This document shows positions 32,810 to 60,982 of a stretch of DNA of 64,000 nt, in pieces. This stretch comes from Anaerolineales bacterium. Lineage in GTDB: Bacteria > Chloroflexota > Anaerolineae > Anaerolineales > E44-bin32. The notes below the pieces were generated by a model that saw only the letters and a program-made list of their open reading frames with translations, did no database searches and was not told the origin of the DNA. The stretch lies in NCBI GenBank assembly GCA_034430795.1, contig DAOUDJ010000209.1:3762-67761 (forward strand), read 5' to 3'. Positions within the stretch are counted from its first letter, which is position 1. Every line of letters begins with the position of its first letter. The position numbers were made by a program, and so were the translations under genes.

Positions 32810-32878
32810 AGTTACCTTATTGATCCCGGGAACATCAATTCCAGATGCCCCCGGGGGTAATTCACAACGGTGGATACT

Positions 32879-34219
32879 TTACTCTGTAGGTCGCAGATCA
32901 GGGGTGTCGGTCCAGTCTTGTAGAACATTAAAGGCATCCGGTCCACCCTGGATCATGCGGATCTGGGAAACATGTGGCGATCGACTCGTACCTGAGTAGT
33001 CGACGCGCAGGACACCATCCAGCGCCTCGAAGGGGCTTAAGTCTATCAAGGCATCATGCACTGCTTCGCCGTTGAGATTCTCGTAGCCCACCGTATCGAT
33101 GGCGTGCTGGATCGCCTGAACGGCCATATCGATCCCGGCGACCAACAGCAGGTAGCCGACATTGTGCTCACTCGACGGCCGTTCGTTGGCGGCGAACAAG
33201 CTCTCGGCATACTGCACTCCGGAATTATCAGCATCGGTCCACCAGAGATAGGGGAAGGCCGAGATCAAGCCAACGCCATATGCCCCGTCTGCGAGGAAAG
33301 CATAAGTGGCCAGATCCATGCCCCAGTTATCGGTCGCGACGACAAATTGATCACGTAGCCCAAGGCTATGGAGGTCATTCAAGACAACCGATACGCCGAA
33401 CGCCAATGTGTTGGTCCAGATGACATTGGCACCAGCCGCCTGGGCGTTGAGGATGGCGATAGTAGTATCCGCGGCCGGCGAGACATCGTAGGTTTCTTCA
33501 GCGACCACCTCGATGCCTAAATCATCCAGGAAGGCCCGCGTCTCGGGTGTGAGTGCTCCCTGGCCAAAGGCTGTGGGCCAGCTGACATAGGCCAGCTTGA
33601 TCTCATCCCCTGCATCGGCCGGTTTGTACGCTGCCCAGTTATCATGCAAAAAGGTCATCACTAAGCCGAACTGATCGGGGTAGATGGGACCCAGCCCGAA
33701 GGAATAACCCGAATCGATGTAGAAGCCACGGGCACTCAAACCGGCGGTGATGTTGACGACCTTATTCTCGGCGAAGCGCTGCGCCAGCGCTTCAACTTCA
33801 CCGGAACCGTAGGTGATCATCACAAGCGGATTGTCATCTTGGCCGGTGAAGCGATCGAAAGCTGCCACGGCTTCATCGATGCTGCCGCCAGTATCGGCGA
33901 ATTTCACATCAAGCATGGCACCGTAAATCCCGCCAGCCTCATTAACTGCTGCGGCGGCATCTTCCGCTCCGTGCACCAGTGGTGAGGTGATTGCCGCATA
34001 AGGGCCGGAAAGATCGCCAAAGTGATAGATAGTGATGGTTTCGCCAGTCAGATCGGGCGGTCCAGCCGGCTCCTCGGGTTCCGGCTCAGGAGTAGCGGGC
34101 TCCTCTATAGGCTCTGGTGGTGGTGGTGGTGGTTCTTCCGTGGGGGCTGGAGCGCAGGCACCTAATACCAGCGCTACCAGGACAAATAGGCTAAGAAGGA
34201 TATGGATCTTGCTACGCAT
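32879..34219 (-). CDS. ABC transporter substrate-binding lipoprotein (LivK/type-I periplasmic-binding fold)
   Basis: 446 aa. Signal peptide plus lipobox (LVLGAC), then a Pro/Glu-rich linker (APAPTEEPPPPPPEPIEEPATPEPEPEEPAGPP), then a Leu/Ile/Val-binding-protein-like body. Confidence 0.85.
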   Translation of the reverse strand: MRSKIHILLSLFVLVALVLGACAPAPTEEPPPPPPEPIEEPATPEPEPEEPAGPPDLTGETITIYHFGDLSGPYAAITSPLVHGAEDAAAAVNEAGGIYGAMLDVKFADTGGSIDEAVAAFDRFTGQDDNPLVMITYGSGEVEALAQRFAENKVVNITAGLSARGFYIDSGYSFGLGPIYPDQFGLVMTFLHDNWAAYKPADAGDEIKLAYVSWPTAFGQGALTPETRAFLDDLGIEVVAEETYDVSPAADTTIAILNAQAAGANVIWTNTLAFGVSVVLNDLHSLGLRDQFVVATDNWGMDLATYAFLADGAYGVGLISAFPYLWWTDADNSGVQYAESLFAANERPSSEHNVGYLLLVAGIDMAVQAIQHAIDTVGYENLNGEAVHDALIDLSPFEALDGVLRVDYSGTSRSPHVSQIRMIQGGPDAFNVLQDWTDTPDLRPTE

Positions 34220-34337
34220 GGCTCATCTCCTCGTTAAGTTTGACGGGGTCTACTCAGGCCATCGGATTCAATGTCGGGGATCGGGGCACGCCCTGAGCTT
34301 CGAAATGAAACAAGTTGTTCCTGCACCTCCTCTTGGG

Positions 34338-35399
34338 TTAATGAGAGAATGGACGCAATCGCCAGGCTGCTTTTATGACATTCCAGCGATACGCTAAACC
34401 TCGCGGCTCAAAGATCAGGAACAGCATTAAAGCTGTACCGAAGAACAATGGACGCAATGCCTGAACGGCACCATAAGCTGTAGCTGGAAGAATATCGGAG
34501 AAAACTGGTCCAAGGATAGTAGCAATTTCGATCAACATCTCGACCACAATCGCGCCGAAGAAAGGACCCAGATTGGATCCCAGACCTCCGATGACCAGCA
34601 TCCCCATGAAGATGATCGAGTCGGTCAAATTGAAGGTTTCAGAATTGATATGGCGCAGTTGGTGAGCCGCCAGCGCACCTGCCAGGCCAGCGTACATAGC
34701 CGCCAGGAAGAAAGCCTGAAGTTTTACCCGGAACAGATTAACTCCAAGCACCTCCGCGGCCAAATCATTATCGCGGATCGTGATGAAGGCGCGCCCAAGA
34801 CGAGAGCGCGAGACATTGTGGGCAACGAATGTAGTCACGATCAGGATAGTCAATGTCAACACCAGGTAGCGCTGCGGCGTGTTGATTTCCAACCCGAAAA
34901 ACACGGGCACGGCCACGTTCAACCCCTGGGCACCGTTCAGCAGCTCTTTGAAGGAGTTGCGGGTAAACCAGGGGATGATGAACTGGGCTGCCAGGGTGGC
35001 CATTACTAGGTAAAACCCCTTCACCCGCAGTGAGGGCAGACCGAATAACAACCCGATCACACCAGCCCCCAGAGCAGCAGCTGGCATCGAGAAGAAGAAG
35101 GGCCAGCCCAGCTGGTTTACCAGCAGCGCAGAAATATAGCCTCCGGTGGTCATGAAGGCCGCCTGGCCCAGTGAGATCTGTCCGGTATAGCCCGTGAGTA
35201 AATTGAGCCCTTGAATTGCGATGATGGTAATGCATATGCGATTCACCAGGGCGACAAGGCTTTGACTTGCATAGAACGGCAATGTGTAGAGCGCAATAAT
35301 GAGAGCGAACAGAACCACCCACTGCCACTTGCGACGGATGGTTGCCATGTCCTCTGCATAACTTGTATCGAATTCACCGGCAGGTCGTAACACAGCCAT
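34338..35399 (-). CDS. branched-chain-type ABC transporter permease (LivM-like)
   Basis: 353 aa, polytopic. Contains GYTGQISLGQAAFM. Confidence 0.9.
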   Translation of the reverse strand: MAVLRPAGEFDTSYAEDMATIRRKWQWVVLFALIIALYTLPFYASQSLVALVNRICITIIAIQGLNLLTGYTGQISLGQAAFMTTGGYISALLVNQLGWPFFFSMPAAALGAGVIGLLFGLPSLRVKGFYLVMATLAAQFIIPWFTRNSFKELLNGAQGLNVAVPVFFGLEINTPQRYLVLTLTILIVTTFVAHNVSRSRLGRAFITIRDNDLAAEVLGVNLFRVKLQAFFLAAMYAGLAGALAAHQLRHINSETFNLTDSIIFMGMLVIGGLGSNLGPFFGAIVVEMLIEIATILGPVFSDILPATAYGAVQALRPLFFGTALMLFLIFEPRGLAYRWNVIKAAWRLRPFSH

Positions 35400-35402
35400 T
35401 TT

Positions 35403-36323
35403 CTAGATCCTCTCGATCCTCTTTTGACCGAATAATCCTTCTGGCAGAATCAGCAAGACCAACAGGAGCACGATATACGGCATGATCTCGCCCGAATTAC
35501 GAATAAATTGGATCTTCGAGGCTGAGACCAACCCCTTCGATAGGCCAATTAAAAGACCACCGACGATCGTGCCCGGGATCGACTCCAAGCCACCTAGGAG
35601 CACGGCTGGGAAGGCCGCCAGCACCACAATGGAAAGGCTCAAATCGAGGCCGCTAGCGGTAGCTAGGAGAACCCCCCCAGTTGTCGCAACAACGGCGGCC
35701 AGCATCCACGAGATGCCAAAGATGCGGTGGACGCGCAGGCCAATGCTCTGCGCCAGCTCGTGATCCTCGGAGGTGGCCCTCATCGCCAGCCCGGCTTTGG
35801 TAAATTGAAAGAAGGCACCGATTACGATTACGCCCAGGATGGCCACGATAAAGGACCACACCAAGTTCTGCTTGAGAATCAGCACAATCGGGTTACCCTC
35901 ATATATAAATGGGGTTGTGATCTTATAAGGGTCACCGGCCGAGAAAATATGCGGGAAATTGCGCTGACTTCCACCGAAAAACAACAGCGCTAATCCTTGC
36001 AGCACCTGGCTGAGACCTAGCGTCATCAGTATGATCGAAAGCAGTGGTTGTCCAGTCATCGGTCGCAGCGCCAAACGTTCGATGACCAGACCCAGAAAAG
36101 CCGAGAGGATCAACGCCAGGGCGATCGAGACCCACAATGGCAGCCCCAGTTCCACCGAAAACCACCAGGTGATTAGCGCACCTATGAGCAGCAGTTGGCC
36201 TTGCGCGAAGTTGAAGATGTAGGAGGACTTGAAGATGAGCACCAAGCCGAGCGCCATCAAGGCGATTGGACCACCGGCTAATAATCCAGTTACGGCGAAC
36301 TGGGGCAGTAATTGCCAATTCAT
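35403..36323 (-). CDS. branched-chain-type ABC transporter permease (LivH-like)
   Basis: 306 aa, polytopic. Contains NFAQGQLLLIGA. Confidence 0.9.
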   Translation of the reverse strand: MNWQLLPQFAVTGLLAGGPIALMALGLVLIFKSSYIFNFAQGQLLLIGALITWWFSVELGLPLWVSIALALILSAFLGLVIERLALRPMTGQPLLSIILMTLGLSQVLQGLALLFFGGSQRNFPHIFSAGDPYKITTPFIYEGNPIVLILKQNLVWSFIVAILGVIVIGAFFQFTKAGLAMRATSEDHELAQSIGLRVHRIFGISWMLAAVVATTGGVLLATASGLDLSLSIVVLAAFPAVLLGGLESIPGTIVGGLLIGLSKGLVSASKIQFIRNSGEIMPYIVLLLVLLILPEGLFGQKRIERI

Positions 36324-38254
36324 TCTGGACTCTCCTCCTTATCGAGCGCTTCTACACGCACCGTCGTTTCGACGATCCCTTCACGACCATCGCGGTAGCG
36401 CACATAAGCCTTGACGTTCACTTCGACGCTATCCCTATACATGGCGTCAATAATATCCTGATAATGTTCCCGCAACGTCCTTCGGCGCAGTTTACGAGTG
36501 CGAGTAAGCTCAGCCTCATCAGCATCGAATTCTTTGTGCATCAGCACAAACCGGCGAACTGCTGCCGCCTCGACTAATGTGTCGTTGACGCGCTCCACAT
36601 CCTGTCGAATTAGACTATAGACCTCTGGCTTTTGCGATAAATCCACGTAAGTTGTGTAAGCGAGACCGTGCCGTTCAGCCCAGCGGCCCACGTTCTCAAA
36701 ATCAATGTTGATTAAAGCCGTGACAAATGGGAGATCGGTCGCGCCTACCGTCATCACGTCACGGATATAGGGGCTGAACTTGAGCTGACCTTCGATGAAC
36801 TGTGGTGAGAAGTGCTCCCCGCTTGCCAGCGTGATCATCTCCTTAAGGCGATCGAGGTAGATCAGGTGCTGGTTCTCATCGATGTGCCCAGCGTCCCCGG
36901 TTCGGAACCACCGTTTACCTTCCGCATCGATCTCGAGTGCCTCTTGAGTGGCACCCGGATCTTTGTAGTATCCCTGGAAAACGGAAGGACCGGCGATGAG
37001 GATTTCGCCGTCATCGCCAATGCGGACTTCCATCCCAGGTGGTGGTACGCCGACAGTCTCAAAACGCACATCATCACCGATGTGGAGCGTGTGGGTCTGG
37101 GCTTCCGTGGAACCGTATAGCTGCTTGATATTAACACCGATGGCACGGAAGAAACGGATCACATCTGGGCTCTGGGCTGCACCCGAAGAATATGCAGAGC
37201 GGATGCGGGTCATGCCCAGTTTGTCCCGTAGGGGGTGAAATAGAGCGAACTCCCCTACCACATAAAGCAGGCGCCAGATCCAGGGAACCGGTTTATGCTG
37301 TTCGTAGCGTAAATTCGCTACTTTATAGCCGACCGGCATGAAGATTCGGTAGAGTAAACGATTGGCCCAAGTGGCTTCGGTCATCTTCACCTGCACCAAG
37401 GCAACCAGGCTTTCCCACTGGCGAGCGCTGAACAACTGCACGAAGGGTGTGATCTCGCGCAGGTTTTCCTGGACCGTCTCGGGAGCCTCTGGAAAGTTGA
37501 CGATCATGCCCGTACGCAGGTGAATCGCCAGTCCAAGCACGTTCTCGGTGATCCAGGCCGGGGGTAGGAATGAGAGGTATTCATCATCTGCGGTGCGCGG
37601 GTCGACCTCCAGAGTTAGATCACAACCGTCGATTAAATTTGCGTGGCTGATCATCGCCCCTTTCGGCTGACCAGTTGTTCCTGATGTGTAGCAAAAGATG
37701 GCAAACTCATCAGCTTTTCCTGCGTCGACCACTTGATCAAACAGCGCTGGTTTTTCCCCATGGAGGTGTCTGCCAAATGCCTGGACCTCGGCGTAATCCA
37801 GCAGCCATTCATCATCGTAGCTCCACAGACCCTTCTCATCCCAGAAGATGACACGCTCCACCTGCGGGAGCCGATCCTTGATCTCGATCAGCTTATCGCA
37901 CTGTTCCTGATCCTTAGCGAACACCAGGGTGGAATCCGAGTGTGCCACGATATATTCAATTTCAAGCGGTGAGCTATCCGTGAAGATACCCACGGCAACA
38001 CCACCGACAGATTGGACCGCCAATTGTGCCCAAAAGTATTGCGGATCGTTATCGCCAATGATGCAGGCTTTCTCTCCGCGGGAAAAACCCAGATGCATCA
38101 GACCAAGGCAAAGATCGCGCGTCTGCTCAAACGATTCTTCCCAGGTAAGGGAGCGCCAGATTCCGCGATCCTTCTGCCGCATTGCGGTTCTGCTCGACCC
38201 ATAACGCGCTGCAGTAGCCCGCAAACTCTTCGGGAGGGTATCCATCTCGCCCAC
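36320..38254 (-). CDS. long-chain acyl-CoA synthetase (AMP-forming, FadD-like) embedded in the ABC operon
   Basis: 644 aa. Canonical A3 motif YTSGTTGQPKGAMISH, plus YGSTEA and FRTGDAG. The start overlaps the livG-like stop region and the stop overlaps the livH-like start. Confidence 0.85.
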   Translation of the reverse strand: MGEMDTLPKSLRATAARYGSSRTAMRQKDRGIWRSLTWEESFEQTRDLCLGLMHLGFSRGEKACIIGDNDPQYFWAQLAVQSVGGVAVGIFTDSSPLEIEYIVAHSDSTLVFAKDQEQCDKLIEIKDRLPQVERVIFWDEKGLWSYDDEWLLDYAEVQAFGRHLHGEKPALFDQVVDAGKADEFAIFCYTSGTTGQPKGAMISHANLIDGCDLTLEVDPRTADDEYLSFLPPAWITENVLGLAIHLRTGMIVNFPEAPETVQENLREITPFVQLFSARQWESLVALVQVKMTEATWANRLLYRIFMPVGYKVANLRYEQHKPVPWIWRLLYVVGEFALFHPLRDKLGMTRIRSAYSSGAAQSPDVIRFFRAIGVNIKQLYGSTEAQTHTLHIGDDVRFETVGVPPPGMEVRIGDDGEILIAGPSVFQGYYKDPGATQEALEIDAEGKRWFRTGDAGHIDENQHLIYLDRLKEMITLASGEHFSPQFIEGQLKFSPYIRDVMTVGATDLPFVTALINIDFENVGRWAERHGLAYTTYVDLSQKPEVYSLIRQDVERVNDTLVEAAAVRRFVLMHKEFDADEAELTRTRKLRRRTLREHYQDIIDAMYRDSVEVNVKAYVRYRDGREGIVETTVRVEALDKEESPE

Positions 38255-38255
38255 C

Positions 38256-39032
38256 TCAAACTGCCTCGCCTAGGTAGGCGTTGATCACGGTTGGGTCCAA
38301 GCGGATTTGCTCGGGAGAACCTTCGGCAATCTTGGCGCCGAAGTCAAGCACCACGGCGCGGTCAGCGATATCCATGACCAAGCCCATATCATGTTCTATC
38401 AGCAAGATTGTCATATGCTCGCGCTCGTGGATATCGAGGATGAAACGCGCCATATCCTCCTTTTCTTCCTGATTCATGCCAGTCATAGGTTCATCCAGCA
38501 GCAGCAAGCGCGGCTCGAGCGCCAGGGCGCGGCCCAATTCCACTCGCTTGCGTAGTCCGTAAGGTAATGATCCGACAATCGATTTACGGATGTGTTCGAT
38601 CTCGAGGAAATCGATGATCTCTTCGATCCGTACTCGATGAGCGATGTCTTCACGGTGCGCCGGACCCCAATAGATCAAACACTGTAAAAAGGTAGCGCGC
38701 ATATGGATATTACGAGCTGCCATTAAGTTATCGAGCGTGCTCAGGCCGGTATACAGGGCGATATTCTGAAAGGTGCGTGCCACCCCCATTTGAGCGATGC
38801 GATGGGGTGGTAGCATCGTCAGGTCCTTCCCGTCAAACAGGATATGCCCTTTGTAGGGACGGTAGAAGCCGTTGAGGCAGTTCAGTATTGATGTCTTACC
38901 AGCGCCGTTCGGCCCGATAATTGCCAGAATCTCACCAGGATGGACGTCGAAGCTAACACTCGTGAGCGCCTGGGTACCGCCGAAGCGCAATGAGACGTCA
39001 TCTACCTTTAGAAAAGTCGTTTCAGTTGTCAT
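38256..39032 (-). CDS. branched-chain-type ABC transporter ATP-binding protein (LivG-like)
   Basis: 258 aa. Walker A GPNGAGKTS, Walker B LLLDEPMTGM, and the LivG-type C-terminus. Confidence 0.9.
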   Translation of the reverse strand: MTTETTFLKVDDVSLRFGGTQALTSVSFDVHPGEILAIIGPNGAGKTSILNCLNGFYRPYKGHILFDGKDLTMLPPHRIAQMGVARTFQNIALYTGLSTLDNLMAARNIHMRATFLQCLIYWGPAHREDIAHRVRIEEIIDFLEIEHIRKSIVGSLPYGLRKRVELGRALALEPRLLLLDEPMTGMNQEEKEDMARFILDIHEREHMTILLIEHDMGLVMDIADRAVVLDFGAKIAEGSPEQIRLDPTVINAYLGEAV

Positions 39033-40559: not shown

Positions 40560-41330
40560 TTAGGCATCCTCTTCCTTCTCGGATTCAGCTTCAGCGTTCG
40601 CTTCTTCCTCGTCTACCTCAGCCTCAGGTTCTTCTTTGGCTTCAGGCTCAGTATCAGTTTCAGTTTCCGTTTCGGCTTCAGATTCAGCAGCCTCTTCGGT
40701 CTCCTTGGCTTCTTCTTCACCATCGGCAGCTTCAGCCTCGGTTTCCTCTGCAACCTCAGGAGCTTCCTTTTCCTCCGCTGGAGCTTCTTCAGGCTCCGCT
40801 TCAGCCTCGGATGCTTCCTTTTCCTCCGCCGGAGCTTCTTCAGGCTCCGCTTCAGCCTCGGTCTCTGCTGCAGCCTCGGGTGCTTCCTCTTCCTCCGCTG
40901 GAGCTTCTTCGGCTTCAGGCGTTTCTTCTACAGCTTCTTCCGCCTCTTCCTTCTTGCGCGCCTTTGCTTTCTTCTTGCGCTTCCCGATAAGATCATCACG
41001 ACGTGTCCGCGGATCGATCTCTGGGAGAGCCTTTTCAGCTTCCTCTAACAGCTTCTCGAGCGATTCTCCTTGCTTAAAGCGTTCCCAACGCTCCCAGGTT
41101 CCAAGAGCGTTAAGTGCTTGACGGACGGCGTCGCTCGGCTGTGCTCCATGCTGTAGCCAGTGGAATAAACGCGCTTCATCCACCACTACGGTGGATGGTT
41201 CCGTGCGAGGATTATAGTGGCCGAGGATCTCCAAGAAGCGCCCATCTCGTGGGCTTTCCTTGTCCGCGGCGACGATTCGGTAGCTCGGTTGGTTACGGGC
41301 TCCCACTCGACGTAATCGAATTCGAACCAT
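40560..41330 (-). CDS. rpsP: 30S ribosomal protein S16 with ~160-aa acidic low-complexity C-terminal extension
   Basis: The N-terminal ~85 aa (MVRIRLRRVGARNQPSYRIVAADKESPRDGRFLEILGHYNP) is canonical S16. The tail is E/A/P-rich and includes a 51-bp tandem DNA repeat at 40762..40861. Confidence 0.9.
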   Translation of the reverse strand: MVRIRLRRVGARNQPSYRIVAADKESPRDGRFLEILGHYNPRTEPSTVVVDEARLFHWLQHGAQPSDAVRQALNALGTWERWERFKQGESLEKLLEEAEKALPEIDPRTRRDDLIGKRKKKAKARKKEEAEEAVEETPEAEEAPAEEEEAPEAAAETEAEAEPEEAPAEEKEASEAEAEPEEAPAEEKEAPEVAEETEAEAADGEEEAKETEEAAESEAETETETDTEPEAKEEPEAEVDEEEANAEAESEKEEDA

Positions 41331-42878: not shown

Positions 42879-45614
42879 TCAAGGGATACCTTCGCTGTGC
42901 ATGAGATCGAGGATATTTCGACCAATACGCTCAGCTACAATCGAATTCTGGCCCTCGATCACGACGACCACAACATAGCGGCTACCGTTTATGAAGAGCC
43001 CACCTTGATACCAGCCAAGCATCTCGCCGACCTCACCCGTAAGGGCTACTGAGCGCTGGCCAAAGGGTTGACCTGCTGCAGCACTGAGCACCTCGATGAC
43101 CCGCTTTCTAACGTTTTGATCCAACACCCTGTTGCCTGACCCCGCAGGGGGGATTTCATTCCAATCCCCTCCCTGGGGTCGGTAGGCATCCACGACTCGG
43201 AGTGCTGGTAAACCCGGGTCTGCGATCAATCCCGCAAATGCCCGGGCGAGCTGCAGAGGGCTTATTGTTAGATCCCCCTGCCCAACCGCCGCCAACCTCA
43301 ACGCTCCTTCACTGGCTAGGTCACCTGGACCTGACGGATCTATGGTTGGCAAGCGAACTTCCGGACGGTCAAAGAAACCAAAGGCCTCGAGCATCTGGTT
43401 GAACTCCTCAGCTCCTAACTCCATGCCGAGCGTGACGAAAGGCGCAGGACACCCATTCAAGAAGGCCTTTGTGAAGTCTGCCTTGCCATCATGGAGAAGC
43501 TTTACCAAACATTCAAGCGACTGACCGTTTACTTCGATAGAGGTTTCTAAGTTCAGAACCAAATCGCCAGGTTCAGCGATGCCCATTTGAATGCTCCATG
43601 CAAGAATATACGGGCTTATCACCATTCCGGGTTGATATCTTCCCTGTGTGACTCGGTTTAATAGTGGAGATGCAGGATCAGTCGTTATGTCTTGCCACTC
43701 TTGATCAAACCGATTTGGATCGTATGAAGGCGATGAAGCCATGGCCAGGATGTCGCCGGACTGTGCTTCCAGCAGGACAAGTCCACCTTGGTACCCACTG
43801 AGTTGATCCGCGGCAGCTTTCTGCAAGTGGTGGTCTAGTGTCAACCGAAGATCGCTGCCGGGTGGAGGATGTCCACTCGTGAGCTGTGACCACCCTATCG
43901 AAATCGGATTATCACCCTCGCTTCCCCTCAGAAGCCCATCCATGACGCTTTCCAAGCCGGATAAACCATACGTAAAGGAGTTATATCCTATGACCGTCGC
44001 GCTTTCAGGGTGTGGATAAAACCGTTGATATGAACCCGGATTGCCCGTTGATTTAGCAAGTAGCTCCCCGGCTTCATCCATGATTAACCCTCGTTTCGTA
44101 TACAGATCTTCCACCGCCCTTCGAGGGTTGTCAGTCCTGCTAAAAAGAATAGGCGCTCGATAAACCGTCCACCAACCTAAAGTTACTGCCAGCGCTCCCC
44201 ATGCGATGAGACTTCCATAGTGCAGCGCCGCAAGTGGGCGTGTGAAGATTTCATTCCACTCGGTTTTCCCTGAGAGCAGAAGCAGAATGCCCAGAAGGAT
44301 GAAGCTCGTGACAAGCGATGATCCGCCGTAGGATACAAACGGCAATGTCACCCCAACCAGCGGAAGCAGACGGATATTCCCACCAATAATCAGCACTGCT
44401 TGCAGCCCTAGCGAGATGCTGATGCCTGCGGAGAGCAAGGCAGAGAAAGGATCCCGCGAATGAAAAGCGACGCGTAATCCCCTGCTAACAAGAACGGCAA
44501 AAAGGGCGATGACGGCTAATCCTCCAAGTAAACCGAACTCCTCAGTAATTGCAGTGAAGATGAAATCGGTATGAACCGCGGGAACAAATCCTGGTGAACC
44601 CAAGCCAAACCCGCGCCCGACTACTCCGCCGGAGGCTAAAGCGATGAGAGACTGAACCAGCTGATACGACCCTCCGATCGAATCCGGCCACGGGTTAATC
44701 CATGCCGTAATCCGCTGACCAACGACATCGAAAAGGAAATAACCCATTGTGCCAGCCAGCATCCCAAAAATCGAAGCAAAGACGAGGATTACCCATCGTC
44801 CTGTCGCTACATAAAGTAGAAGGGCAAGGAGCGCCAGGAAGAGCATTCCCATCCCCAAATCCCGCTGAACGAGCAATAGAGCTACCGAGAGCGACCAGAT
44901 GACAATCAATGGAAGCAGTGTGGAAAACGAGGGGAGTCCCTCCTCTCGATGGAATGTGAAACGCAGTTTGTCACTCAGAAAGGACGCAAGAAAGGCAACT
45001 AATAGCAACCGGAGAGGTTCAGATGGCTGGAGATAAACCCCACAGCATCCGAGCCAGAGTCTGGGCTCACCTCCCGTAGGATGGGTGCCGAAAACCAATG
45101 TCAATATCATCAGCACCAAACCCACGGTCATCCACACATACCGGTAGCGCCGCAGCCAAGATAGATTCCGATCCCCATGAAGAACCGCATAGAGGACGGT
45201 GATACCAACGATGAACCAAGCCGTCTGCCGAAACCCGAAGCTTGGAAATAGGCGCCAAATAACCAGCAAACCCCAGCCAGTGAGCAGAAAAGCTGTTGGC
45301 AGCAAGATGGGATCGCGCTCGGGATTCGTGCGATGGAGCGCCTGGCGAGTGAGCCAAAAACCAAAAACCCAAACAGGAAGAACGAGAAAGTGCCCCCAGC
45401 GATCTCCAAAAGCTGACCATTGGTTTAGGCGTGCTGCAGATGCGAAAGACAATGCAAAGGCAGTGAAGAGCAAAAAGAGGAACGCGAGGCTTCCCAGAAA
45501 TAGCTCGCGCTCCTCGCTGGTTCGTTCTTGATCAACGAAGATATCGATCCACAAGGAGAGAGTACCTCCTACGCGCCGCTTCTGAGATGAGGTCAGGTTT
45601 AGTAGCAATTGCAT
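42879..45614 (-). CDS. fusion of SEDS glycosyltransferase (RodA/FtsW family) with a class-B penicillin-binding-protein-like domain
   Basis: 911 aa. The N-terminal ~470 aa is polytopic, with SEDS motifs (QLVQSLIALASGGVVGRGFGLG, PAVHTDFIFTAITEEFG). The C-terminal ~430 aa carries PBP2/PbpA framework motifs (KRGLIMDEAGELLA, GLSGLESVMDGLL, ILAMASSPSYDPNRF, VGQGDLTISPLQLA). The start is uncertain. The ATG at 45614 overlaps mtnP by 83 nt. An alternative TTG at 45554 follows a GGAGG. Confidence 0.85.
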   Translation of the reverse strand: MQLLLNLTSSQKRRVGGTLSLWIDIFVDQERTSEERELFLGSLAFLFLLFTAFALSFASAARLNQWSAFGDRWGHFLVLPVWVFGFWLTRQALHRTNPERDPILLPTAFLLTGWGLLVIWRLFPSFGFRQTAWFIVGITVLYAVLHGDRNLSWLRRYRYVWMTVGLVLMILTLVFGTHPTGGEPRLWLGCCGVYLQPSEPLRLLLVAFLASFLSDKLRFTFHREEGLPSFSTLLPLIVIWSLSVALLLVQRDLGMGMLFLALLALLLYVATGRWVILVFASIFGMLAGTMGYFLFDVVGQRITAWINPWPDSIGGSYQLVQSLIALASGGVVGRGFGLGSPGFVPAVHTDFIFTAITEEFGLLGGLAVIALFAVLVSRGLRVAFHSRDPFSALLSAGISISLGLQAVLIIGGNIRLLPLVGVTLPFVSYGGSSLVTSFILLGILLLLSGKTEWNEIFTRPLAALHYGSLIAWGALAVTLGWWTVYRAPILFSRTDNPRRAVEDLYTKRGLIMDEAGELLAKSTGNPGSYQRFYPHPESATVIGYNSFTYGLSGLESVMDGLLRGSEGDNPISIGWSQLTSGHPPPGSDLRLTLDHHLQKAAADQLSGYQGGLVLLEAQSGDILAMASSPSYDPNRFDQEWQDITTDPASPLLNRVTQGRYQPGMVISPYILAWSIQMGIAEPGDLVLNLETSIEVNGQSLECLVKLLHDGKADFTKAFLNGCPAPFVTLGMELGAEEFNQMLEAFGFFDRPEVRLPTIDPSGPGDLASEGALRLAAVGQGDLTISPLQLARAFAGLIADPGLPALRVVDAYRPQGGDWNEIPPAGSGNRVLDQNVRKRVIEVLSAAAGQPFGQRSVALTGEVGEMLGWYQGGLFINGSRYVVVVVIEGQNSIVAERIGRNILDLMHSEGIP

Positions 45615-46398
45615 CTTCTAATGCGGCGTGACATTCACAACCCACCTTTTCGGGGAGTTCTGCAACAAGGCGAGCGATTACTTCCTGGGCGAGGTTGGTA
45701 TTCTTCTTAACCGTTTGGAAGACCATCTCCACCGTGACTGGCTCCTCGGCTTGATGCCAGACGTCGTAATCTGTGACATGCGCCATTACCGCGTAGCACA
45801 TCTCAGCTTCTCTGGCGAGAAAAGCTTCAGGAGAAGTTGTCATCCCAATAATAGATATTCCCCAAGCACGGTAGATATTGGATTCTGCACGGGTCGAGAA
45901 ACGCGGTCCTTCGATCGTGATGTAGCATCCTCCACGATGGACATTCCCGCTTACTTCCTCGGTGCTGGAAGCCAAGAGCTCGGAGAGGTCTGGGCAAAAC
46001 GGGTCGGCGACACTTATATGTGTCACCAATCCGCTCTCGAAGAACGAGCGAGACCTGGAAACTGTGCGGTCGAAGATCTGGTCAGGGATGACAATCTCGC
46101 CTGGCACATAGTCCTCACGCAGCGACCCGCAGGCACTGACCGCAAGAACGCGCTTGACACCGAACATTTTCATCGCATATATATTTGCCCGGTAATTTAC
46201 GTCAGTCGGTGGATAGATATGCCCGATCCCGTGGCGTGCAAGAAAAGCGACTTTTCGACTATTTAACATACCCATAGCAATCGGTGAACTAGGTTCACCA
46301 AAGGGTGTCGAGACCTCATGCATTTCTACATCAGTCAGATCATGCATGTCGTACAAGCCCGACCCACCAATTACGCCGAGAACAGGTTTTTCGTCCAT
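45532..46398 (-). CDS. mtnP: S-methyl-5'-thioadenosine phosphorylase
   Basis: 288 aa. Contains GVIGGSGLY, FLARHG, ACGSLRE and IGMTTSPEAFLAREAEMCYA. Confidence 0.9.
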   Translation of the reverse strand: MDEKPVLGVIGGSGLYDMHDLTDVEMHEVSTPFGEPSSPIAMGMLNSRKVAFLARHGIGHIYPPTDVNYRANIYAMKMFGVKRVLAVSACGSLREDYVPGEIVIPDQIFDRTVSRSRSFFESGLVTHISVADPFCPDLSELLASSTEEVSGNVHRGGCYITIEGPRFSTRAESNIYRAWGISIIGMTTSPEAFLAREAEMCYAVMAHVTDYDVWHQAEEPVTVEMVFQTVKKNTNLAQEVIARLVAELPEKVGCECHAALEDAIATKPDLISEAARRRYSLLVDRYLR

Positions 46399-46545
46399 AA
46401 TCTCTCTCTTATTTCTTGCTATCTTAACCTAGGCTCGAGTTCGTAATTTCCACTTTCAGACAACGGTTGCCCTGCCGCTTATGTGGCTATACGAATATTC
46501 TTGTATCACGAAATTGGCGTTCACCACGCATAGATGTTCGTTCGA

Positions 46546-46986
46546 TTATTCCAAGTCATCTTCAACAACGGGTGCTTCCATTCGGAATTCAACTCGACCG
46601 AAGGAAATCTGGTCGCCATAGGTGACGACCAACGGTCCTTCGAGCGGTATTCCATTGACTGCCGTTCCGTTCCGCGAGCCTGAATCCTCCAACCACCACT
46701 GCCCATCCTGAAAGGATAACCGCGCATGATGCGCGGAAGCCATATCATCCTCAAGCACCAATGTATTATCGGCTGCTCGACCAATTCTATTATTTGCAAT
46801 GAGAGAGTGTCTCACCTCAACATCCGACCCATCAGCTAAGACAAGAACTGCGGGAGGGCTATGTACTTCTGATGCTCGATGGGATTGTATCTCCTTCCCA
46901 AGAAAAAGAAGGAGCATGCCCAGAAAAGCGTAGAGGATCAGGCCCATGACAACCCTGATCATAAGAAGTACTAATCCTGGAGTCAT
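46546..46986 (-). CDS. membrane-anchored FHA-domain protein (FhaB/FipA-like)
   Basis: 146 aa. N-terminal TM helix (LVLLMIRVVMGLILYAFLGMLLLFL) followed by an FHA core (IGRAADNTLVLEDDMASAHHARLSF..WWLEDSGSRNGTAVNG). The start overlaps the upstream stop. Confidence 0.8.
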   Translation of the reverse strand: MTPGLVLLMIRVVMGLILYAFLGMLLLFLGKEIQSHRASEVHSPPAVLVLADGSDVEVRHSLIANNRIGRAADNTLVLEDDMASAHHARLSFQDGQWWLEDSGSRNGTAVNGIPLEGPLVVTYGDQISFGRVEFRMEAPVVEDDLE

Positions 46987-47849
46987 TCCTGAGGTTTTTT
47001 CTTCTTGGGGATCACTCGGGTTCGTTGGTCACCGGAAGGGCGCGGGGGGAATGGAGGCGAATAAGCTGGCGTTTCATCGGGTGGTCCTCCAGGGTCCTCT
47101 CCGTATACAAGCCGGTTTCCCGCCAGGTTGATTACATCTCCCGATTGTAGGACATGATGCTTAATTGCCCGCCCATTGATCACAGTGCCAGCGGAGGATC
47201 CTAGATCAAATGCTTCAAACCGCCCTTCTCTTGCTCGAATTTGAGAATGAGTCCTCGATATTCGTGGGTCATCGATGATAAGTTGATTATCCAGACGGCG
47301 GCCGATGTTCACGACGGGTCGATCCAAGGGAAAATGGCGATCCCCATTTACAATCAAATACGCACCCTTGGGAAGTACACCCGGATTGGTCTTGGGTTCA
47401 GTCTGCATAGCCTGTGTGAACTCCAGCGGGCTAGTGCTGTGCCATGCGACAACCCTCACCTCTTTCGGCCTTAATGTAGGATCGACTGCGATTGTCACAA
47501 TCGGTTTTCGAAAGACCAGATAATCACAGTCCCGTGCAACTTGAAGAAGCCCTTGCGAGAAGCTATCCTGCAGGTGTGGCGCTTGATCTAGAATCGCCTG
47601 CGCATCATCGGGATTCAGCGTGAGCGCGTATTGATCAGGGACGAAGGGTTTGCCATCTTCCGTCCTGCGGATACCCTCATCCATCGCGCGCGAGAGTTGG
47701 GCAGCGACCAGCGCAGGCGAAAACTGAACCCCGATCAATTTACCCAGGGCTCCCTCGACGAATCTCTCAATTTGTGACTCGATGTGGTCGATTGGATTAG
47801 CCACGCTTGCTGTGTCTCTTAACCGTAAAAATAGCCATTCTGCGTGCAA
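46983..47849 (-). CDS. FhaA-like protein (DUF3662-like N-domain + C-terminal FHA), paralog 2
   Basis: 288 aa. FHA core IGRRLDNQLIIDDPRISRTHSQI..FDLGSSAGTVINGR and a Pro-rich tail. An alternative GTG start lies at 47804. Confidence 0.8.
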   Translation of the reverse strand: MHAEWLFLRLRDTASVANPIDHIESQIERFVEGALGKLIGVQFSPALVAAQLSRAMDEGIRRTEDGKPFVPDQYALTLNPDDAQAILDQAPHLQDSFSQGLLQVARDCDYLVFRKPIVTIAVDPTLRPKEVRVVAWHSTSPLEFTQAMQTEPKTNPGVLPKGAYLIVNGDRHFPLDRPVVNIGRRLDNQLIIDDPRISRTHSQIRAREGRFEAFDLGSSAGTVINGRAIKHHVLQSGDVINLAGNRLVYGEDPGGPPDETPAYSPPFPPRPSGDQRTRVIPKKKKPQE

Positions 47850-47874
47850 TCATAGCACATATATTAGATGTGAT

Positions 47875-48729
47875 TTAATTATTCTCGCCAGGGGAATCCG
47901 AATCAAGCTTTCTCAATTGCTTTGTGATCCTAAAATCCATGGGGGTTATGCGATCATCTGCGGGCTCTGGCGCAGGTCCTGGCTTGTAAGGTGGTGTTAC
48001 CTCTGGCGGACCACCCGTATCTTCTCCATAGATTAATTCGACAGTCGCTACATTAATCAAGTCCCCCGGTTGGAGCGTATGTTCCTTAACCTTTCGTCCA
48101 TTCACAAAGGTCCCGGCTGTAGAATTGAGGTCATGGATGACGTATTTACCGCGGTTGGCTAGCAGCTGCAAATGTTGTCTTGAGACTCGAGGATCGTCGA
48201 TTACCAGATCATTATCCAAACGACGACCAATTTTGACCAGTGGGGTTGATAGCTGAAAATGCCGTTTGCCTTCGACAACGAGAAAAGCGCCAGCTGGGGG
48301 TCTATCGGTATCGTACTCCTCGATCGGCGTGAGCTCGCCCTGTATACCCAGCGGATTGCTGCTGTGCCAACCGATAATGCGAACCCCATCTTGAGGGAGG
48401 GTTGGGTCAGTGGCAATCGTGAAATGAACATCTCTTGCAAAAAGAAAACCGGCCTGTTGCAGAGCTTGCCTAAACTCCCGGGATATTTCCATTTGAAGAT
48501 CGTCCGACAATTGCCCGATTTGTTTCATGGCATCTGGGTGAACGCTTAACGTGAACTGATCAGGGGCAAACTCTCGCCCATTAGAATCAATACGCGCAAC
48601 CCCAACCGATTCTTTTGCAAATTGGTGGGCAAAGTTTTCCAGAGGGAGATCGCCAAGATCGAGATACCCCAAGGATTTCTTAAGAGCTTCCTCTATCGCT
48701 CCTGCAATCTGTAATAATCGATCGTCCAT
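47875..48729 (-). CDS. FhaA-like protein (DUF3662-like N-domain + C-terminal FHA), paralog 1
   Basis: The track ORF is trimmed to the ATG at 48729 (MDDRLLQIAGAIEEALKK), giving 284 aa. FHA core IGRRLDNDLVIDDPRVSRQHLQL..HDLNSTAGTFVNGR. The 81 upstream codons look non-coding (S/R/C-rich). Confidence 0.8.
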   Translation of the reverse strand: MDDRLLQIAGAIEEALKKSLGYLDLGDLPLENFAHQFAKESVGVARIDSNGREFAPDQFTLSVHPDAMKQIGQLSDDLQMEISREFRQALQQAGFLFARDVHFTIATDPTLPQDGVRIIGWHSSNPLGIQGELTPIEEYDTDRPPAGAFLVVEGKRHFQLSTPLVKIGRRLDNDLVIDDPRVSRQHLQLLANRGKYVIHDLNSTAGTFVNGRKVKEHTLQPGDLINVATVELIYGEDTGGPPEVTPPYKPGPAPEPADDRITPMDFRITKQLRKLDSDSPGENN

Positions 48730-48796
48730 TCTTATGATTATACATAGCCGCCGCTCGTCGTTAAAAGGGCAATTCGTACTATATACTGGAGATGTG

Positions 48797-56531: not shown

Positions 56532-59500
56532 TTAACCTTCGACTTTACGTAGAGCGATCCGTAACGATTCTCCGTCGAAATGATGCTCGGTCGTGATCAC
56601 GCCCTGCGGGTTTGCCCTCGACTGCATACTCTCAGCGATGACTTCTCCTTGAATATAGACGCGGTGCACATCGATGGCCTGAGCAAGCTTATCACTTGCA
56701 GTATATTGCACCTCGATGCCATCATCCACCTGAAGATTCGCCTGCCTGCGCAAGTCTTGCACGCGGCGCACAAACTCTCGCGCCAACCCTTCCAGGACCA
56801 ACTCTTCTGTCAGCTCTGTAACCAACGCCGCTACATAGGGTCCATCCGCAACAGCGGAAAAACCCTCGTGAGCTTCGATGCGTAGTTCCACTTCATCCGC
56901 CGTCAACTGGATGGCTTGATCTTCGATTTTTACCTCGATCGGTTTCCCTGCCAGCAGAGCAGACGCACTTTGAGATGGATCAAGCTTCCCAACAGCGTCA
57001 CGGATCGCGGGGAAGAGCGAACCATATTTCTGCCCTAACTGCTTTGGCAGCGCCTTGAGTTGGTACTCGACTGCTTCTGCAGCGGCGTCGAGCAAGCGTA
57101 CTTTTTTAACATTTAATTCATCTCGGATCAGCGCATCGAAACGATTGACAATAGCACGCTCCTCTGAACCTGAGACTGCGAAAACAACTTCGGATAGAGG
57201 TTGCCTCAGCTTCCTGTTAGCTTTGTTCCGCGCTGCATGCCCCATGGAGATGAGCATTTGAACGAATTTCATCTCCTTCAATAAATCCTCATCCACCTCA
57301 GCTGGATCCACCTCCGGCCAAGGGCGATGGTGGACACTCTCAAGCGCGTCATCATCGATGCTCCGTACGAGGTTTTGGTACATCGTCTCCACAACAAAGG
57401 GCGTGAAAGGAGCTAGAACGTGGGTCAAGGTCAGCAGCGCTTGATAGAGCGCAGTATAGGCTGCATGTTTATCCGCATCCGAGGCTTCATCCACACCGGT
57501 TTTCGCCCAGAACCGGCGCCTACTCCGACGGAGGTACCAGTTGCTCAAGTCATCCAGGAAATTCCCGATCACTTTAGCAGCGCGGTCGGGCTCGAAGGTT
57601 TCAAGAGCATGTGTCACCTGATCGATTGTCTGAAGCGAACGTGAGAGAATCCAACGGTCCATAACACTGAACCGGACATCACCACGGTCGGCCGGTGTCC
57701 ACCCATCGAGATTGGCATAGGTAACGAAGAAGGCATACACATTCCACAGTGGTATCAGGAACTGTCGCCGGGCTTCGGTCGCGGTCTCAAATCCAAAAAG
57801 CAAGTCCTTCTCAGGCCTGTGGTTGCAATAGACCCACCGCATGACATCTACACCCATTGCGTCGGCGGCTTTGTTAAACTCGATCATATTGCCCGAAGAT
57901 TTATGCATCGGTTGCCTATCTTCGGCGAGCAAAGTCGCATAAGTAAACACGTGTTTGAATGGCGACTTCCGCTCGAGAATCGTGCTCAAAGCCAGGAGGC
58001 TATAGAACCAGTTTCGGAACTGTCCCGGGAATGATTCGCTGATTAGATCGGCAGGATACCACTCCGACCAATACTCCTTATCGGTGTTGTAGCGGAGCGT
58101 ACTCATCGCCACAACCCCCGCATCCAACCAGGGATTGCCAACATCCGGGATGCGTTCGATAACCGCGCCACATTCACTGCATTCAATCTTCACAGCATCG
58201 ATGTACGGTCGGTGTGGCGTGTGACCCTCAAAAACGTCCCAGCCCTCAACCGCTCTCGCTTCGAGTTCCTCGCGACTTCCAATCACTTCGAAATGCCCGC
58301 AGGATTCGCACTCCCAGATTGGCAGTGCCAGCCCGTAATAGCGCTTCTTCGAGAGCATCCAGTTATGCATATTCCGCAGCCAATCGAGCTCACGCTCCAG
58401 TCCGAAGGAGGGATGCCAAGTTGTTTCTTCTTTCACGACCTCCATAATCTGATAACGCAGGTTGTTTAACTTCTCCTCTTCTGTGACCTGCTCGTAGGGT
58501 TTGTCTAGTTGTTCGCCCATGTTGATGAACCATTCATCCACAAGATGGAATACAAGCTCTTCCCCGCAACGCCAACAAACCGGGTAGCGATGGATATAAT
58601 CCTCGATATTGTAAGTCAAGCTCTTTTCAGTCAGATTTTCGAATATTGGCTGAGCAACTTTCTGGACATTCATCCCCGACAGCCAGCCAAACCCATCGAG
58701 GAAAAGACCGTCGTTGTCTAGCGGTGCAATAACCGGCAGGCCATGTTCCTTGCTCAACTGGAAATCCTCGGCACCACAGCCAGGCGCGATGTGTACGATT
58801 CCAGTCCCCTCGTCTTCGCCCACTTCTTCCCATAGGATCACGCGATGCGCTTCAGGACTTCCCTGTTCTTTTTGAACGGGCAGCTCATCAAAAGGACCAT
58901 CATAAGTCCAACCTTCCATTTCTTTGCCTTTAAGCTCCGCTTCAACTTCGTAGGAACCCTTCAATATATGCAATGTCCCCCTGCTCAGATAGAAAAACTC
59001 ATCCCCCTGACGGACCTTGACATAATCCAAGTCGGGACCAACGGCGGCAGCGACGTTGCTCGTGAGCGTCCATGGCGTGGTCGTCCAAATGAGCAAGCTC
59101 TCACGTTCTCGATCGCGGAGCGGAAAGCGCAACGTGATACTCGGGTGGGTGATTTCCTTGTACCCCTCGGTCACAATCTCATGCTGGCTTAAGCCCGTAC
59201 CACAACGCACACACCACGGCATAACATCACGCCCTTTGAAAATCCAGCCCCGATCGTAGCAGGACTTGAGCACGGCCCAGATGGTGTAGTTGTTGTCATC
59301 TGAAAAAGTGAAATATGATCCGCCTAGTTCCGGCATGCCTAAGCGGCCCACGATGGATTCAACGCTGCCCGTTACCGGTCCGTGCGGCCCTTCCACTGTG
59401 ATTTGCTGGGATGGATCCTCCGCCATCTTATCTCGCAGAGTCCGCAGCATGTCGGGATCGTTCCAATCCATCCAGAACCCCAGGCGGATGCTCTGCTCTG

Positions 59501-60683: not shown

Positions 60684-60982
60684 AAAAGCTCCCGTCCCAA
60701 ACAGGGACGAGAGCACATTACTCCCGTGGTACCACCCTGATTCCCATCAACAGCGGGCTCTCAGTCAGGTACGACCAACAAAATCAGTGGCTTATACCTG
60801 CGCCTTGGGTAACGGCAGGCGATCCCGGCTTCCTTACTTGCGATGTACTGCGTTCGGGTTGCAGCTCCGGAGGGATTTTCCGACTGTTATCCTGACCCGG
60901 CTCTCACCGTCCCCGGGCTCGCTGACAGGCAGACTCAGACGTACTCGTCTCCATCAAAGCTTTTTTCTTCTATTGAATTTAT
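60684..60982 (-). promoter_or_regulatory. T-box riboswitch leader (probable Ile specifier) controlling alaX-ileS
   Basis: Read on the minus strand. K-turn AGC-UUU-GA-UGGAG pairs with CUCCG-GA-GCU. Specifier loop is ACGAGUA / GAAAAUCC. AG bulge is AGCGA. Distal loop is GGACGGUGAGAG. An F-box-like CCGUUA is present. The T-box sequence AAUCAGGGUGGUACCACGGGAG lies at 60742..60721. The terminator CUCUCGUCCC-UGUU-GGGACGGGAG followed by CUUUU lies at 60713..60684. Confidence 0.88.

Follow-up and report, generated by a model that had tools for sequence, protein, structure and literature searches.

A five-gene cluster in a 64,000-nucleotide stretch of an Anaerolineales (Chloroflexota) contig, DAOUDJ010000209.1 (the whole stretch is called the window here), encodes a single polypeptide in which a SEDS-family glycan polymerase is joined to a PbpA-type penicillin-binding protein of class B (bPBP), and we found that the PbpA-like half has lost all three catalytic motifs of a transpeptidase, in the window and throughout its family. 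The other four genes code for two FhaA-like proteins, an FhaB-like protein and an S-methyl-5'-thioadenosine (MTA) phosphorylase, and no kinase or phosphatase gene accompanies the three FHA proteins. With moderate confidence, we propose that the fusion works as a SEDS polymerase with a tethered pseudo-transpeptidase that would serve as activator or scaffold, that crosslinks would be made by other enzymes, and that the FHA proteins would read kinases encoded elsewhere.

RESULTS

The PbpA-like half of the fusion is a pseudo-transpeptidase

The initial annotation had described the last gene of the cluster as RodA joined to PbpA. One uninterrupted open reading frame (ORF) with three Pfam domains is indeed present, but the idea of a working PbpA did not hold, as all three catalytic motifs are missing across the whole family. 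In a residue-level alignment to Mycobacterium tuberculosis PbpA (3un7), PGMVIS (43614..43631) lies under PGSTFK, so that SxxK is replaced by M-V-I-S (Ser to Met and Lys to Ser), and G-C-P (43440..43457) lies under the SCN of PbpA, in the place of SxN. When a profile built from 51 members of the family was aligned with PbpA, it covered the entire protein (E 1.4e-74) and put the KTG motif on FGQRSVALTG (43035..43064), a region that has no Lys. We rejected an assignment of KTG by eye to "LTG", since the profile alignment places the motif on the preceding Lys-free stretch, which leaves the conclusion unchanged.

The loss extends to every one of the 119 homologs with 45% identity or more, to all 70 PBP modules from a set of 84 loci (L001-L084, of which 80 came from a scan of one genome per GTDB species), and to all of the best 150 representatives of clusters at 50% identity found with the PBP module alone as the query, about half of which are unfused proteins of ~450 aa. 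No alternative Ser/Lys pair is conserved across the family. Actinobacterial, Firmicutes and other PbpA-type proteins scored fully intact in the same pipeline, and the canonical PBP2 of relatives has PPGSIFK and KTGT; the motif loss is therefore specific to this family and not an alignment artefact.

Nor is the PBP module a pseudogene: its ratio of nonsynonymous to synonymous substitutions (dN/dS) shows purifying selection, its fold is predicted with confidence, and this fold matches that of PbpA. Over ten close orthologs, the transpeptidase-like domain had a dN/dS of 0.21 and the pedestal one of 0.165, next to 0.085 for the SEDS part and 0.088 for the linker and 11th transmembrane (TM) helix. 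The AlphaFold2 (AF2) model of the fusion, built from a 110-sequence alignment, had a pLDDT of 85 and a pTM of 0.80, with a pLDDT of 88-95 over the transpeptidase-like domain. Foldseek aligned it with PbpA-type structures over ~440 columns at TM scores of 0.79-0.83, with M. tuberculosis PbpA as the top match (TM 0.79), which among solved proteins was also the best sequence match of the C-terminal 430 aa (E 8.8e-31). The Pfam Transpeptidase match spans only profile positions 1-194 of 299. Two cysteines (C682 and C702) and the GCP motif are near-invariant, and the invariant columns of the pedestal include R488, G489, G504, G507, R511, Y513, G523, E535, D539, R543 and G544. A frameshift or assembly artefact as the origin of the fusion was rejected, since more than 100 independent assemblies have the same 891-aa ORF.

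Five lineages (L068, L071, L072, L073 and L076) are without pedestal and transpeptidase-like domain and keep the SEDS part, the 11th TM helix and the cluster. Their SEDS genes end shortly after an ENPR motif, and in L068, L071 and L076 the next gene follows directly, with no room for a PBP module. These loci (L068:6744-8264, L071:7845-9377, L072:6307-7812, L073:6479-8089 and L076:7989-9470) belong to metagenome-assembled genomes (MAGs) of soil Anaerolineales.

The SEDS half keeps its catalytic motif

The SEDS half matches Pfam FTSW_RODA_SPOVE (242 bits, 9.6e-72) and scores below both NCBIfam equivalog models for RodA and FtsW (214 and 247 bits, with a cut-off of ~337), so that it is assigned to neither subfamily. 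It looks functional, because the alignment with Pseudomonas aeruginosa FtsW shows HTDF to be in place and neither H328 nor D330 varies among 110 sequences; we take the Asp of HTDF to be the catalytic residue of SEDS proteins. The Lys of the QPSExxK motif is replaced by Arg in all 118 fused homologs and is kept in two unfused Chloroflexota loci (L085 and L090) and in 120 actinobacterial SEDS proteins.

Organization and boundaries of the cluster

Pfam and NCBIfam searches bore out the five-gene arrangement at 42879-48729 on the minus strand (fhaA1, fhaA2, fhaB, mtnP and SEDS::PBP) that had been described initially, including its coordinates, strand, domains and structural details; the duplication of FhaA and the single SEDS/PBP ORF are both present (Table 1). 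The genes fhaA2 and fhaB overlap by 4 nt and mtnP and the SEDS gene by 23 nt, and 147 nt separate fhaB from mtnP. The start of the fusion is most likely the TTG at 45554, as it gives the 891 aa found in nearly all homologs and has AGGAGG 10 nt upstream; the ATG at 45614 is less likely. Orthologs of fhaA2 are called at 273-274 aa in relatives.

Upstream, the cluster is bounded by the divergently transcribed archease/rtcB genes, with the archease ATG (48734) 4 nt from the fhaA1 ATG (48729), and downstream by ffh, which begins 106 nt after the fusion and is followed by rpsP, khpA and rimM. Both operon boundaries thus lie inside the window, and the kinase/phosphatase pair that might have stood just outside the five genes is not there, neither gene type being local.

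Table 1 Features of the FhaA/FhaB-SEDS::PBP cluster (positions in the window)
Feature	Position	Strand	Details
FhaA-like paralog 1 (fhaA1)	47875..48729	-	284 aa from ATG; the mechanical ORF runs to 48972
FhaA-like paralog 2 (fhaA2)	46983..47849	-	ORF of 288 aa, or 273 aa from the probable GTG start at 47804
TM-FHA protein (FhaB/FipA-like)	46546..46986	-	146 aa; N-terminal TM helix and FHA domain
mtnP	45532..46398	-	288 aa; S-methyl-5'-thioadenosine phosphorylase; stop TGA 45534..45532
SEDS::PBP fusion	42882..45554	-	One uninterrupted ORF, 891 aa from TTG 45554
SEDS (RodA/FtsW-family) module, putative glycan polymerase	44235..45554	-	aa 1-440; HTDF 44562..44573, QPSEPLR 45009..45029
Cytoplasmic linker and 11th TM helix (former bPBP anchor)	44094..44234	-	aa 441-487; AF2 helix 438-465, pLDDT ~90
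PbpA-type pedestal (PBP_dimer_2, PF21922)	43788..44093	-	aa 488-589; Pfam 42.6 bits, 7.5e-11
Pseudo-transpeptidase domain	42882..43787	-	aa 590-891; Pfam Transpeptidase 78 bits
Promoter-like TTAACG-16 nt-TATAAT	48737..48764	-	Consensus scan, 10/12 matches; -10 ends 7 nt before the fhaA1 ATG
Candidate internal -10, TTAAGAT	46421..46427	-	In the 147-nt fhaB-mtnP spacer; the window copy is without TG
Putative Shine-Dalgarno sequence AGGAGG of the fusion	45565..45570	-	Read from the sequence; within the mtnP 3' end, 10 nt before TTG 45554

The likeness to the mycobacterial fhaA-fhaB-pstP-rodA-pbpA order was confirmed as one of homologous content and order, and can be seen directly in an Actinomycetota contig (L092) that reads Ser/Thr kinase (STK)-FhaA-FhaB-PP2C-SEDS-PbpA-PASTA kinase, the PbpA having intact motifs. 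The SEDS protein of L092 is ~70% identical to Thermoleophilia/Actinomycetes proteins. The existence of a complete cluster, with PP2C and kinases, within Chloroflexota was rejected, since the sole complete one found, L092, is from Actinomycetota.

Three FHA proteins without a local kinase or phosphatase

FHA domains read phosphothreonine, with Gly-Arg and Ser-x-x-His residues binding the phosphate. The FHA assignments held in profile searches, where all three proteins matched Pfam FHA and both FhaA paralogs exceeded the Pfam cut-offs for FhaA_N and FHA. For paralog 1, FhaA_N scored 32.2 bits (1.6e-7; cut-off 25) and FHA 75 bits (5.5e-21), and for paralog 2 the scores were 67.5 bits (1.8e-18) and 61.7 bits (8.9e-17); the two share 40.6% identity over 256 aa. 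The TM-FHA protein reached 63 bits (2.8e-17) with Pfam FHA, and its best NCBIfam model, FhaB_Rv0019c, scored 86.9 bits, under the 125-bit equivalog cut-off, with an architecture and position that match FhaB.

Over 54 orthologs, neither GR nor SxxH varies in any of the three proteins, and in FhaB the Asn-Gly (NG) of the beta6-beta7 loop is invariant as well. In both FhaA paralogs, the beta6-beta7 Asn (S-x-N-G-T) is replaced by A, S or G in all 54-55 orthologs (near 48115 in fhaA1 and 47190 in fhaA2). The C-terminal tails of both FhaA proteins (window 47875-48030 and 46983-47110, minus strand) share YGEDxGGPPxxTPxYxPP, a conserved motif rich in Pro. Its Tyr is nearly invariant and its Thr ~80% conserved, and paralog 2 adds PPFPPRPAGDQxT to it. 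We speculate that this motif could be a docking or phosphorylation site.

That three FHA readers stand here with no local writer or eraser was borne out by both Pfam and six-frame searches. No Pkinase or PP2C domain was found with Pfam in the 64-kb window, covering essentially all ORFs of at least 100 aa. For the six-frame searches we used the PP2C and two kinases of L092 as probes; as a positive control, the L092 proteins were recognised by other probes. Six-frame phmmer with the PP2C probe gave no match in the window or in 91 other loci, and the kinase probes gave none in the window and matched only L042 and L064 among the 91. Neither kinase was accepted as a member of the cluster: the one in L064, a STAND-NTPase/kinase fusion, has an amidohydrolase gene between it and the cluster, and that of L042 is located beyond tyrS. 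We found no cluster that combines a dead PbpA with PP2C or kinases, and among clusters with FHA or SEDS neighbours none that combines an intact PbpA with MtnP, few intact clusters having been sampled. A correlation of the motif state with PP2C/kinase or with MtnP is a lead, not a result. An intact PbpA-type protein labelled Chloroflexi (P0300) lies on a short contig without FHA or SEDS genes.

mtnP encodes an intact MTA phosphorylase linked to the SEDS gene

The fourth gene scored 311.6 bits with TIGR01694 for MTA phosphorylase (MTAP), above the curated equivalog cut-off of 274.85, and aligned end to end with the solved archaeal MTAP 1v4n (E 1.7e-77) and with 2a8y. In our reading of the alignment to solved MTAPs, the phosphate- and nucleoside-binding motifs GGSG, RHGxGH, EGPRFST, IGMT and VTDYD are kept. 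By these comparisons, mtnP encodes an intact standard MTAP with no extra domain and a fold unrelated to that of a phosphatase. We rejected a diverged phosphatase or pseudo-enzyme, as the protein passes the MTAP cut-off, aligns over its full length with solved MTAPs and keeps the catalytic motifs. MTA phosphorylase had been placed initially in the slot of pstP: its position does equal that of PP2C in L092, but a functional replacement of the phosphatase is unsupported, because the fold of this intact MTAP is unrelated and the slot is empty in eight related loci that keep the rest of the cluster.

In 66 of 75 informative loci, MtnP follows the last FHA gene and precedes the SEDS gene. In three distant loci (L085, L088 and L090), a PNP_UDP_1 gene 53-59% identical to the window MtnP occupies the same position, and overlap or abutment of mtnP and the SEDS gene is repeated in the called genes of L001, L002, L004, L088 and L090. 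From the position of the putative ribosome-binding site within its 3' end, mtnP appears to be translationally coupled to the SEDS gene. The gene orders compared here place the MtnP-SEDS-pseudoPbpA linkage before both the SEDS::PBP fusion and the FhaA duplication, since it is present in L085, which is unfused, and in L088 and L090.

Conservation of the cluster and its variants

With the full-length fusion as the query, and thus with the SEDS half included, 3595 database matches were obtained at E<=1e-10, and the PBP module alone matched 510 clusters at 50% identity (E<=1e-30). The best 120 relatives of the fusion are nearly all of 865-932 aa and come from Anaerolineales or Chloroflexota MAGs. 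Gene calls around three relatives at 86%, 49% and 48% identity gave the same five genes and flanks. The 80 scan loci are Anaerolineales, Anaerolineae or Chloroflexota MAGs except L006 and L042. L006 (JAIWHF010000014.1) is labelled "Methanosarcinales archaeon" and holds a bacterial cluster at 86% identity with identical flanks; this contig is almost certainly mis-binned.

The usual order, archease/rtcB diverging from FhaA-FhaA-FhaB-MtnP-SEDS::PBP, mostly followed by ffh and then rpsP-khpA-rimM, recurs in ~65 species-level genomes, so the arrangement is not due to chance and the five genes are syntenic in related genomes. The variants are of several kinds. L014 and L027 are without mtnP, and a group at 38% identity (L059-L062, L066 and L075) has a single FhaA together with FhaB and the fusion, lacks mtnP and is flanked by other genes. 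L063, L064 and L079 have separate genes for SEDS and a short PBP, and together with L085 are genuinely unfused; the split fusions in the MFD long-read MAGs L067, L069, L080 and L081 look like indel errors. At a greater distance, with PBP modules 30-36% identical to that of the window, L085 reads FhaA-FhaB-MtnP-SEDS-pseudoPbpA with other flanks, L088 (fused, 30% identity, 40% GC) reads FHA-FHA-MtnP-fusion with yet other flanks, and L090, a 3.9-Mb contig, reads MtnP-SEDS-pseudoPbpA with no FHA genes nearby. Overall, the cluster recurs with differing flanks at 40% to 67% GC.

In two relatives (L062:14129-18487 and L060:13881-18373), mreB lies 4-6 kb downstream of the fusion and is followed by two unscanned ORFs, in the positions of mreC and mreD, and then by a canonical PBP2 with PBP_dimer and Transpeptidase domains and intact PPGSIFK and KTGT motifs. 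Because relatives also carry this mreB-...-PBP2 set, the fusion need not be the main synthase of the Rod system, its SEDS part being probably an extra SEDS protein rather than the RodA of that system, and the intact PBP2 motifs indicate that other crosslinking capacity exists in the lineage.

Expression signals

A generic consensus scan for promoters and terminators inside the cluster was at background, with 8 promoter-like sites against 6.2 expected and 9 terminator-like sites against 7.4, and the usable evidence for promoters is that of comparative conservation. Of 53 distinct loci, 45 have an exact TATAAT 6-10 nt upstream of the fhaA1 start codon (at 6-7 nt in 37 of these), and the sequence around it is not conserved across loci. 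As the -10 box ends 7 nt before the ATG, the fhaA1 transcript appears to be leaderless, starting at the ATG. Upstream of mtnP, TGnTA[AT]NAT (typically TGCTAAGAT) was found in 24 of 58 distinct loci (from L005-L084) versus 0.6% of shuffles, which suggests a second promoter before the mtnP-SEDS pair. In the window, fhaA2 is also preceded by a similar TGTGCTATGAT (about 47845-47855, minus strand). Motifs of this kind may be internal promoters or the preferred -10 form of the lineage.

DISCUSSION

A bPBP has two roles, crosslinking and the allosteric activation of its SEDS polymerase, and to our knowledge these have so far been separated by engineered point mutants only. The family described here appears to be a natural and long-lived separation of the two, checked directly in at least 150 clusters at 50% identity, and has its stages on view: the dead partner still unfused, the dead partner fused, the domain eroded in part, and the whole module deleted.

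We regard the locus as a probable Chloroflexota (Anaerolineales) version of the FhaA/FhaB-SEDS-PbpA cell-wall module. In Actinobacteria this module is well known, and fhaA-fhaB-pstP-rodA-pbpA-pknA-pknB corresponds to M. tuberculosis Rv0020c-Rv0014c (PMC11898655). The window shares with the actinobacterial cluster FhaA with its FhaA_N and FHA domains, an FhaB-like TM-FHA protein, SEDS, a PbpA-type bPBP with a PBP_dimer_2 pedestal, and the phosphate-binding residues of the FHA domains; identity to the L092 proteins is 42% for the SEDS part and 30% for the PBP module. Unlike the actinobacterial cluster, it has no PP2C, the slot holding mtnP in the window and mtnP or nothing in relatives, and no Hanks or PASTA kinases, ffh following the fusion instead. 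FhaA is duplicated in the window and is without the ~300-aa disordered linker, with 273-284 aa versus 527 aa in M. tuberculosis (PMC11898655). SEDS and PbpA, separate there, form one polypeptide here, and the catalytic motifs of PbpA are gone.

The fusion of SEDS and a bPBP as such is already described. A 2025 catalogue presents natural SEDS-bPBP chimeras as putative "bifunctional" class B PBPs, with 117 InterPro proteins and, as examples, chimeras of 947 aa in Rhodococcus jostii and 931 aa in Senegalimassilia faecalis (PMC12516126). The window protein resembles these in its SEDS part, extra TM helix, pedestal, transpeptidase fold and length of ~890 aa, but the catalogued chimeras are presented there with a working transpeptidase, whereas in the window family the transpeptidase chemistry is gone and the SEDS HTDF is kept, and the family is far larger than the 117 proteins catalogued. 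We found no statement on Chloroflexota fusions or dead active sites in the main text of PMC12516126. RodA-PBP2 and SpoVE-SpoVD fusions have also been engineered, and those of the same N-to-C order, RodA-PBP2 among them, are functional (PMC6207328). Catalytically dead Bacillus subtilis PBP2b and Clostridioides difficile SpoVD S311A still support SEDS, other PBPs providing the crosslinks (PMC12713402); we propose for the window protein a similar case of a bPBP that has no transpeptidase activity and is kept because it supports its cognate SEDS structurally or allosterically, with the difference that those are engineered point mutants and that the loss seen here is natural, extends to all three motifs, has become fixed throughout a large clade and is accompanied by a covalent fusion. 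The pedestal type, together with the Cys of S-C-N, is shared with M. tuberculosis PbpA (3un7/3lo7) and the PbpA-type proteins of Coriobacteriia (4mnr and 4jbf), but the solved proteins are acylated by beta-lactams at the SxxK motif, where the window protein has M-V-I-S. A literature search on Chloroflexi/Anaerolineae with SEDS, FhaA or PBP returned nothing on the window cluster. As far as the literature was searched, what appears to be undescribed is the family-wide loss of the transpeptidase in the PbpA-type partner, both fused and unfused, with its graded decay, as well as the absence of the kinase/phosphatase pair and the conserved coupling of mtnP in an FhaA/FhaB-SEDS cluster.

In the mechanism that we propose, the SEDS half would be the enzyme that polymerises lipid II into glycan strands, as its kept motifs and strong purifying selection suggest. 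The PbpA-like half would keep anchor, pedestal and fold, and by alignment could not form an acyl-enzyme, since nothing is left of SxN, of the Ser and Lys of SxxK or of the Lys of KTG. By analogy with the dead bPBPs mentioned above, it likely holds the SEDS part and activates it allosterically through the pedestal, and perhaps docks other factors, and the fusion would make the SEDS-PbpA partnership obligatory at 1:1. As the PbpA-like half could not crosslink, peptide crosslinks would come from other enzymes, a candidate being the canonical PBP2 that relatives carry near mreB, outside the window. The two soluble FhaA proteins and the membrane-anchored FhaB would presumably recruit or restrain this machine upon Thr phosphorylation by distant Hanks kinases. 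Transcription would run apparently leaderless from the fhaA1 ATG, with a second promoter probably before mtnP, as the conserved motifs suggest, and mtnP would be co-expressed and translationally coupled with the SEDS gene, metabolic co-regulation rather than signalling being our default assumption. This arrangement may amount to a distinct wiring of envelope-growth control, as the initial annotation suggested.

Several observations weigh against this proposal. Five lineages deleted the PBP module and yet keep SEDS and the cluster, and the tethered activator is therefore dispensable; a separate group of ~805-835 aa proteins (P0310-P0356) has a further eroded domain in which the SxN region is lost. 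The change of the QPSExxK Lys to Arg in every fused member touches the polymerase itself and may bear on its activity. Peptide binding by both FhaA FHA domains may be atypical, because the conserved beta6-beta7 Asn is missing in both, and no kinase was seen for the source genome in the 64 kb covered. Finally, the old and tight linkage of mtnP, kept without FHA genes in L090, is unexplained and argues that mtnP is more than a passenger.

Among the other explanations, a true bifunctional class B synthase, with glycosyltransferase and D,D-transpeptidase in one chain, would fit the detection of the Pfam Transpeptidase domain, the whole-domain fold match to PbpA and the term used in PMC12516126, but it is barely credible given the absence of the nucleophile Ser and general-base Lys of SxxK, of SxN and of the KTG Lys, the lack of any conserved substitute pair, the partial Pfam match and the expected scores of the intact controls. 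A further reading, very unlikely if less so, takes the entire fusion together with its SEDS half for a scaffold without enzymatic activity, or for what remains of an ancestral actinobacterial-type cluster in decay. In its favour, nothing is left of the kinases, the phosphatase or the transpeptidase chemistry that L092 has, Arg stands in for the conserved SEDS Lys, and relatives have a separate mreB and intact PBP2; against this stand the dN/dS of the SEDS part, the kept HTDF with its invariant H328 and D330, the presence of the gene in every one of the ~80 related genomes sampled, its strong Shine-Dalgarno sequence and translational coupling, and the conservative nature of a K-to-R change. The dead domain could also be imagined as an extracellular sensor of stem peptides or lipid II that replaces sensing by a PASTA kinase and signals across the membrane to the FHA proteins. 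The purifying selection on the domain, its well-folded cleft region, the near-invariant cysteines and GCP, and the absence from the window of the PASTA kinase found in L092 are consistent with such a role, which we consider unlikely, as several lineages delete the domain yet keep the FHA genes, the former active-site lining varies widely among homologs, which is unexpected for a specific ligand pocket, and the reading of a conformational signal by FHA domains without phosphorylation has no known mechanism.

A role for mtnP as a functional component of the module, by coupling polymerisation to S-adenosylmethionine (SAM)/MTA/polyamine metabolism or by binding the cytoplasmic face of SEDS, for example, is in our view possible, though doubtful. 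The adjacency of MtnP and SEDS in most loci, with overlap or abutment, extends to L085, L088 and L090 despite their other flanks and diverged PBP modules; the Shine-Dalgarno sequence of the SEDS gene lies within mtnP, and a conserved promoter-like motif stands directly upstream of it. Set against these are the standard nature of the enzyme, the eight loci that do without it in an otherwise kept cluster, the lack of any known biochemical link between MTA and peptidoglycan polymerisation, and the frequency with which housekeeping genes are carried along in conserved operons. If the link were functional, cell-wall polymerisation would receive a new input from metabolism; in any case, an MTA phosphorylase tied to a cell-wall polymerase gene across deep divergence is a puzzle.

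More tentatively, a large Chloroflexota lineage may have naturally uncoupled polymerisation from crosslinking in the SEDS-bPBP pair, by keeping the pseudo-enzyme partner unfused, fusing it (in Anaerolineales) or discarding it, while dropping the kinase and phosphatase and coupling an MTA phosphorylase upstream. In that case, the machine would also be intrinsically insensitive to beta-lactams. The family offers material for asking what the pedestal and the transpeptidase fold contribute beyond chemistry, and it calls for caution in annotation, as SEDS-PBP chimeras should not be called "bifunctional" by default. It also illustrates that FhaA/FhaB readers can persist beside a polymerase without a local kinase or phosphatase.

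OTHER FEATURES OF THE WINDOW

The gene for ribosomal protein S16 (40560-41330, minus strand) codes for 256 aa, of which the Pfam S16 domain takes up only residues 8-66, and its orthologs range from 134 to 383 aa, which points to a long and variable C-terminal extension. Further on, a branched-chain amino-acid ABC transporter and two AMP-binding (acyl-CoA ligase-like) genes (32003-39032, minus strand) stand between rimM and the CTP synthase gene; as relatives (L001, L002 and L004) have a Robl_LC7 gene and pyrG directly after rimM, this block would be a lineage-specific insertion or rearrangement. A T-box leader (60700-60966, minus strand; Rfam 109 bits against a gathering score of 93) precedes an AlaX-like editing-domain gene (59903-60613) and a gene for a 1120-aa isoleucyl-tRNA synthetase with DUF5915 (56532-59894). 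Two fusion proteins are encoded on the plus strand at 5758-8628 and 9585-10814: one has an RNase T-like exonuclease N-terminal to a DinG-type helicase, and the other joins a HAD hydrolase to a DinB_2 domain.

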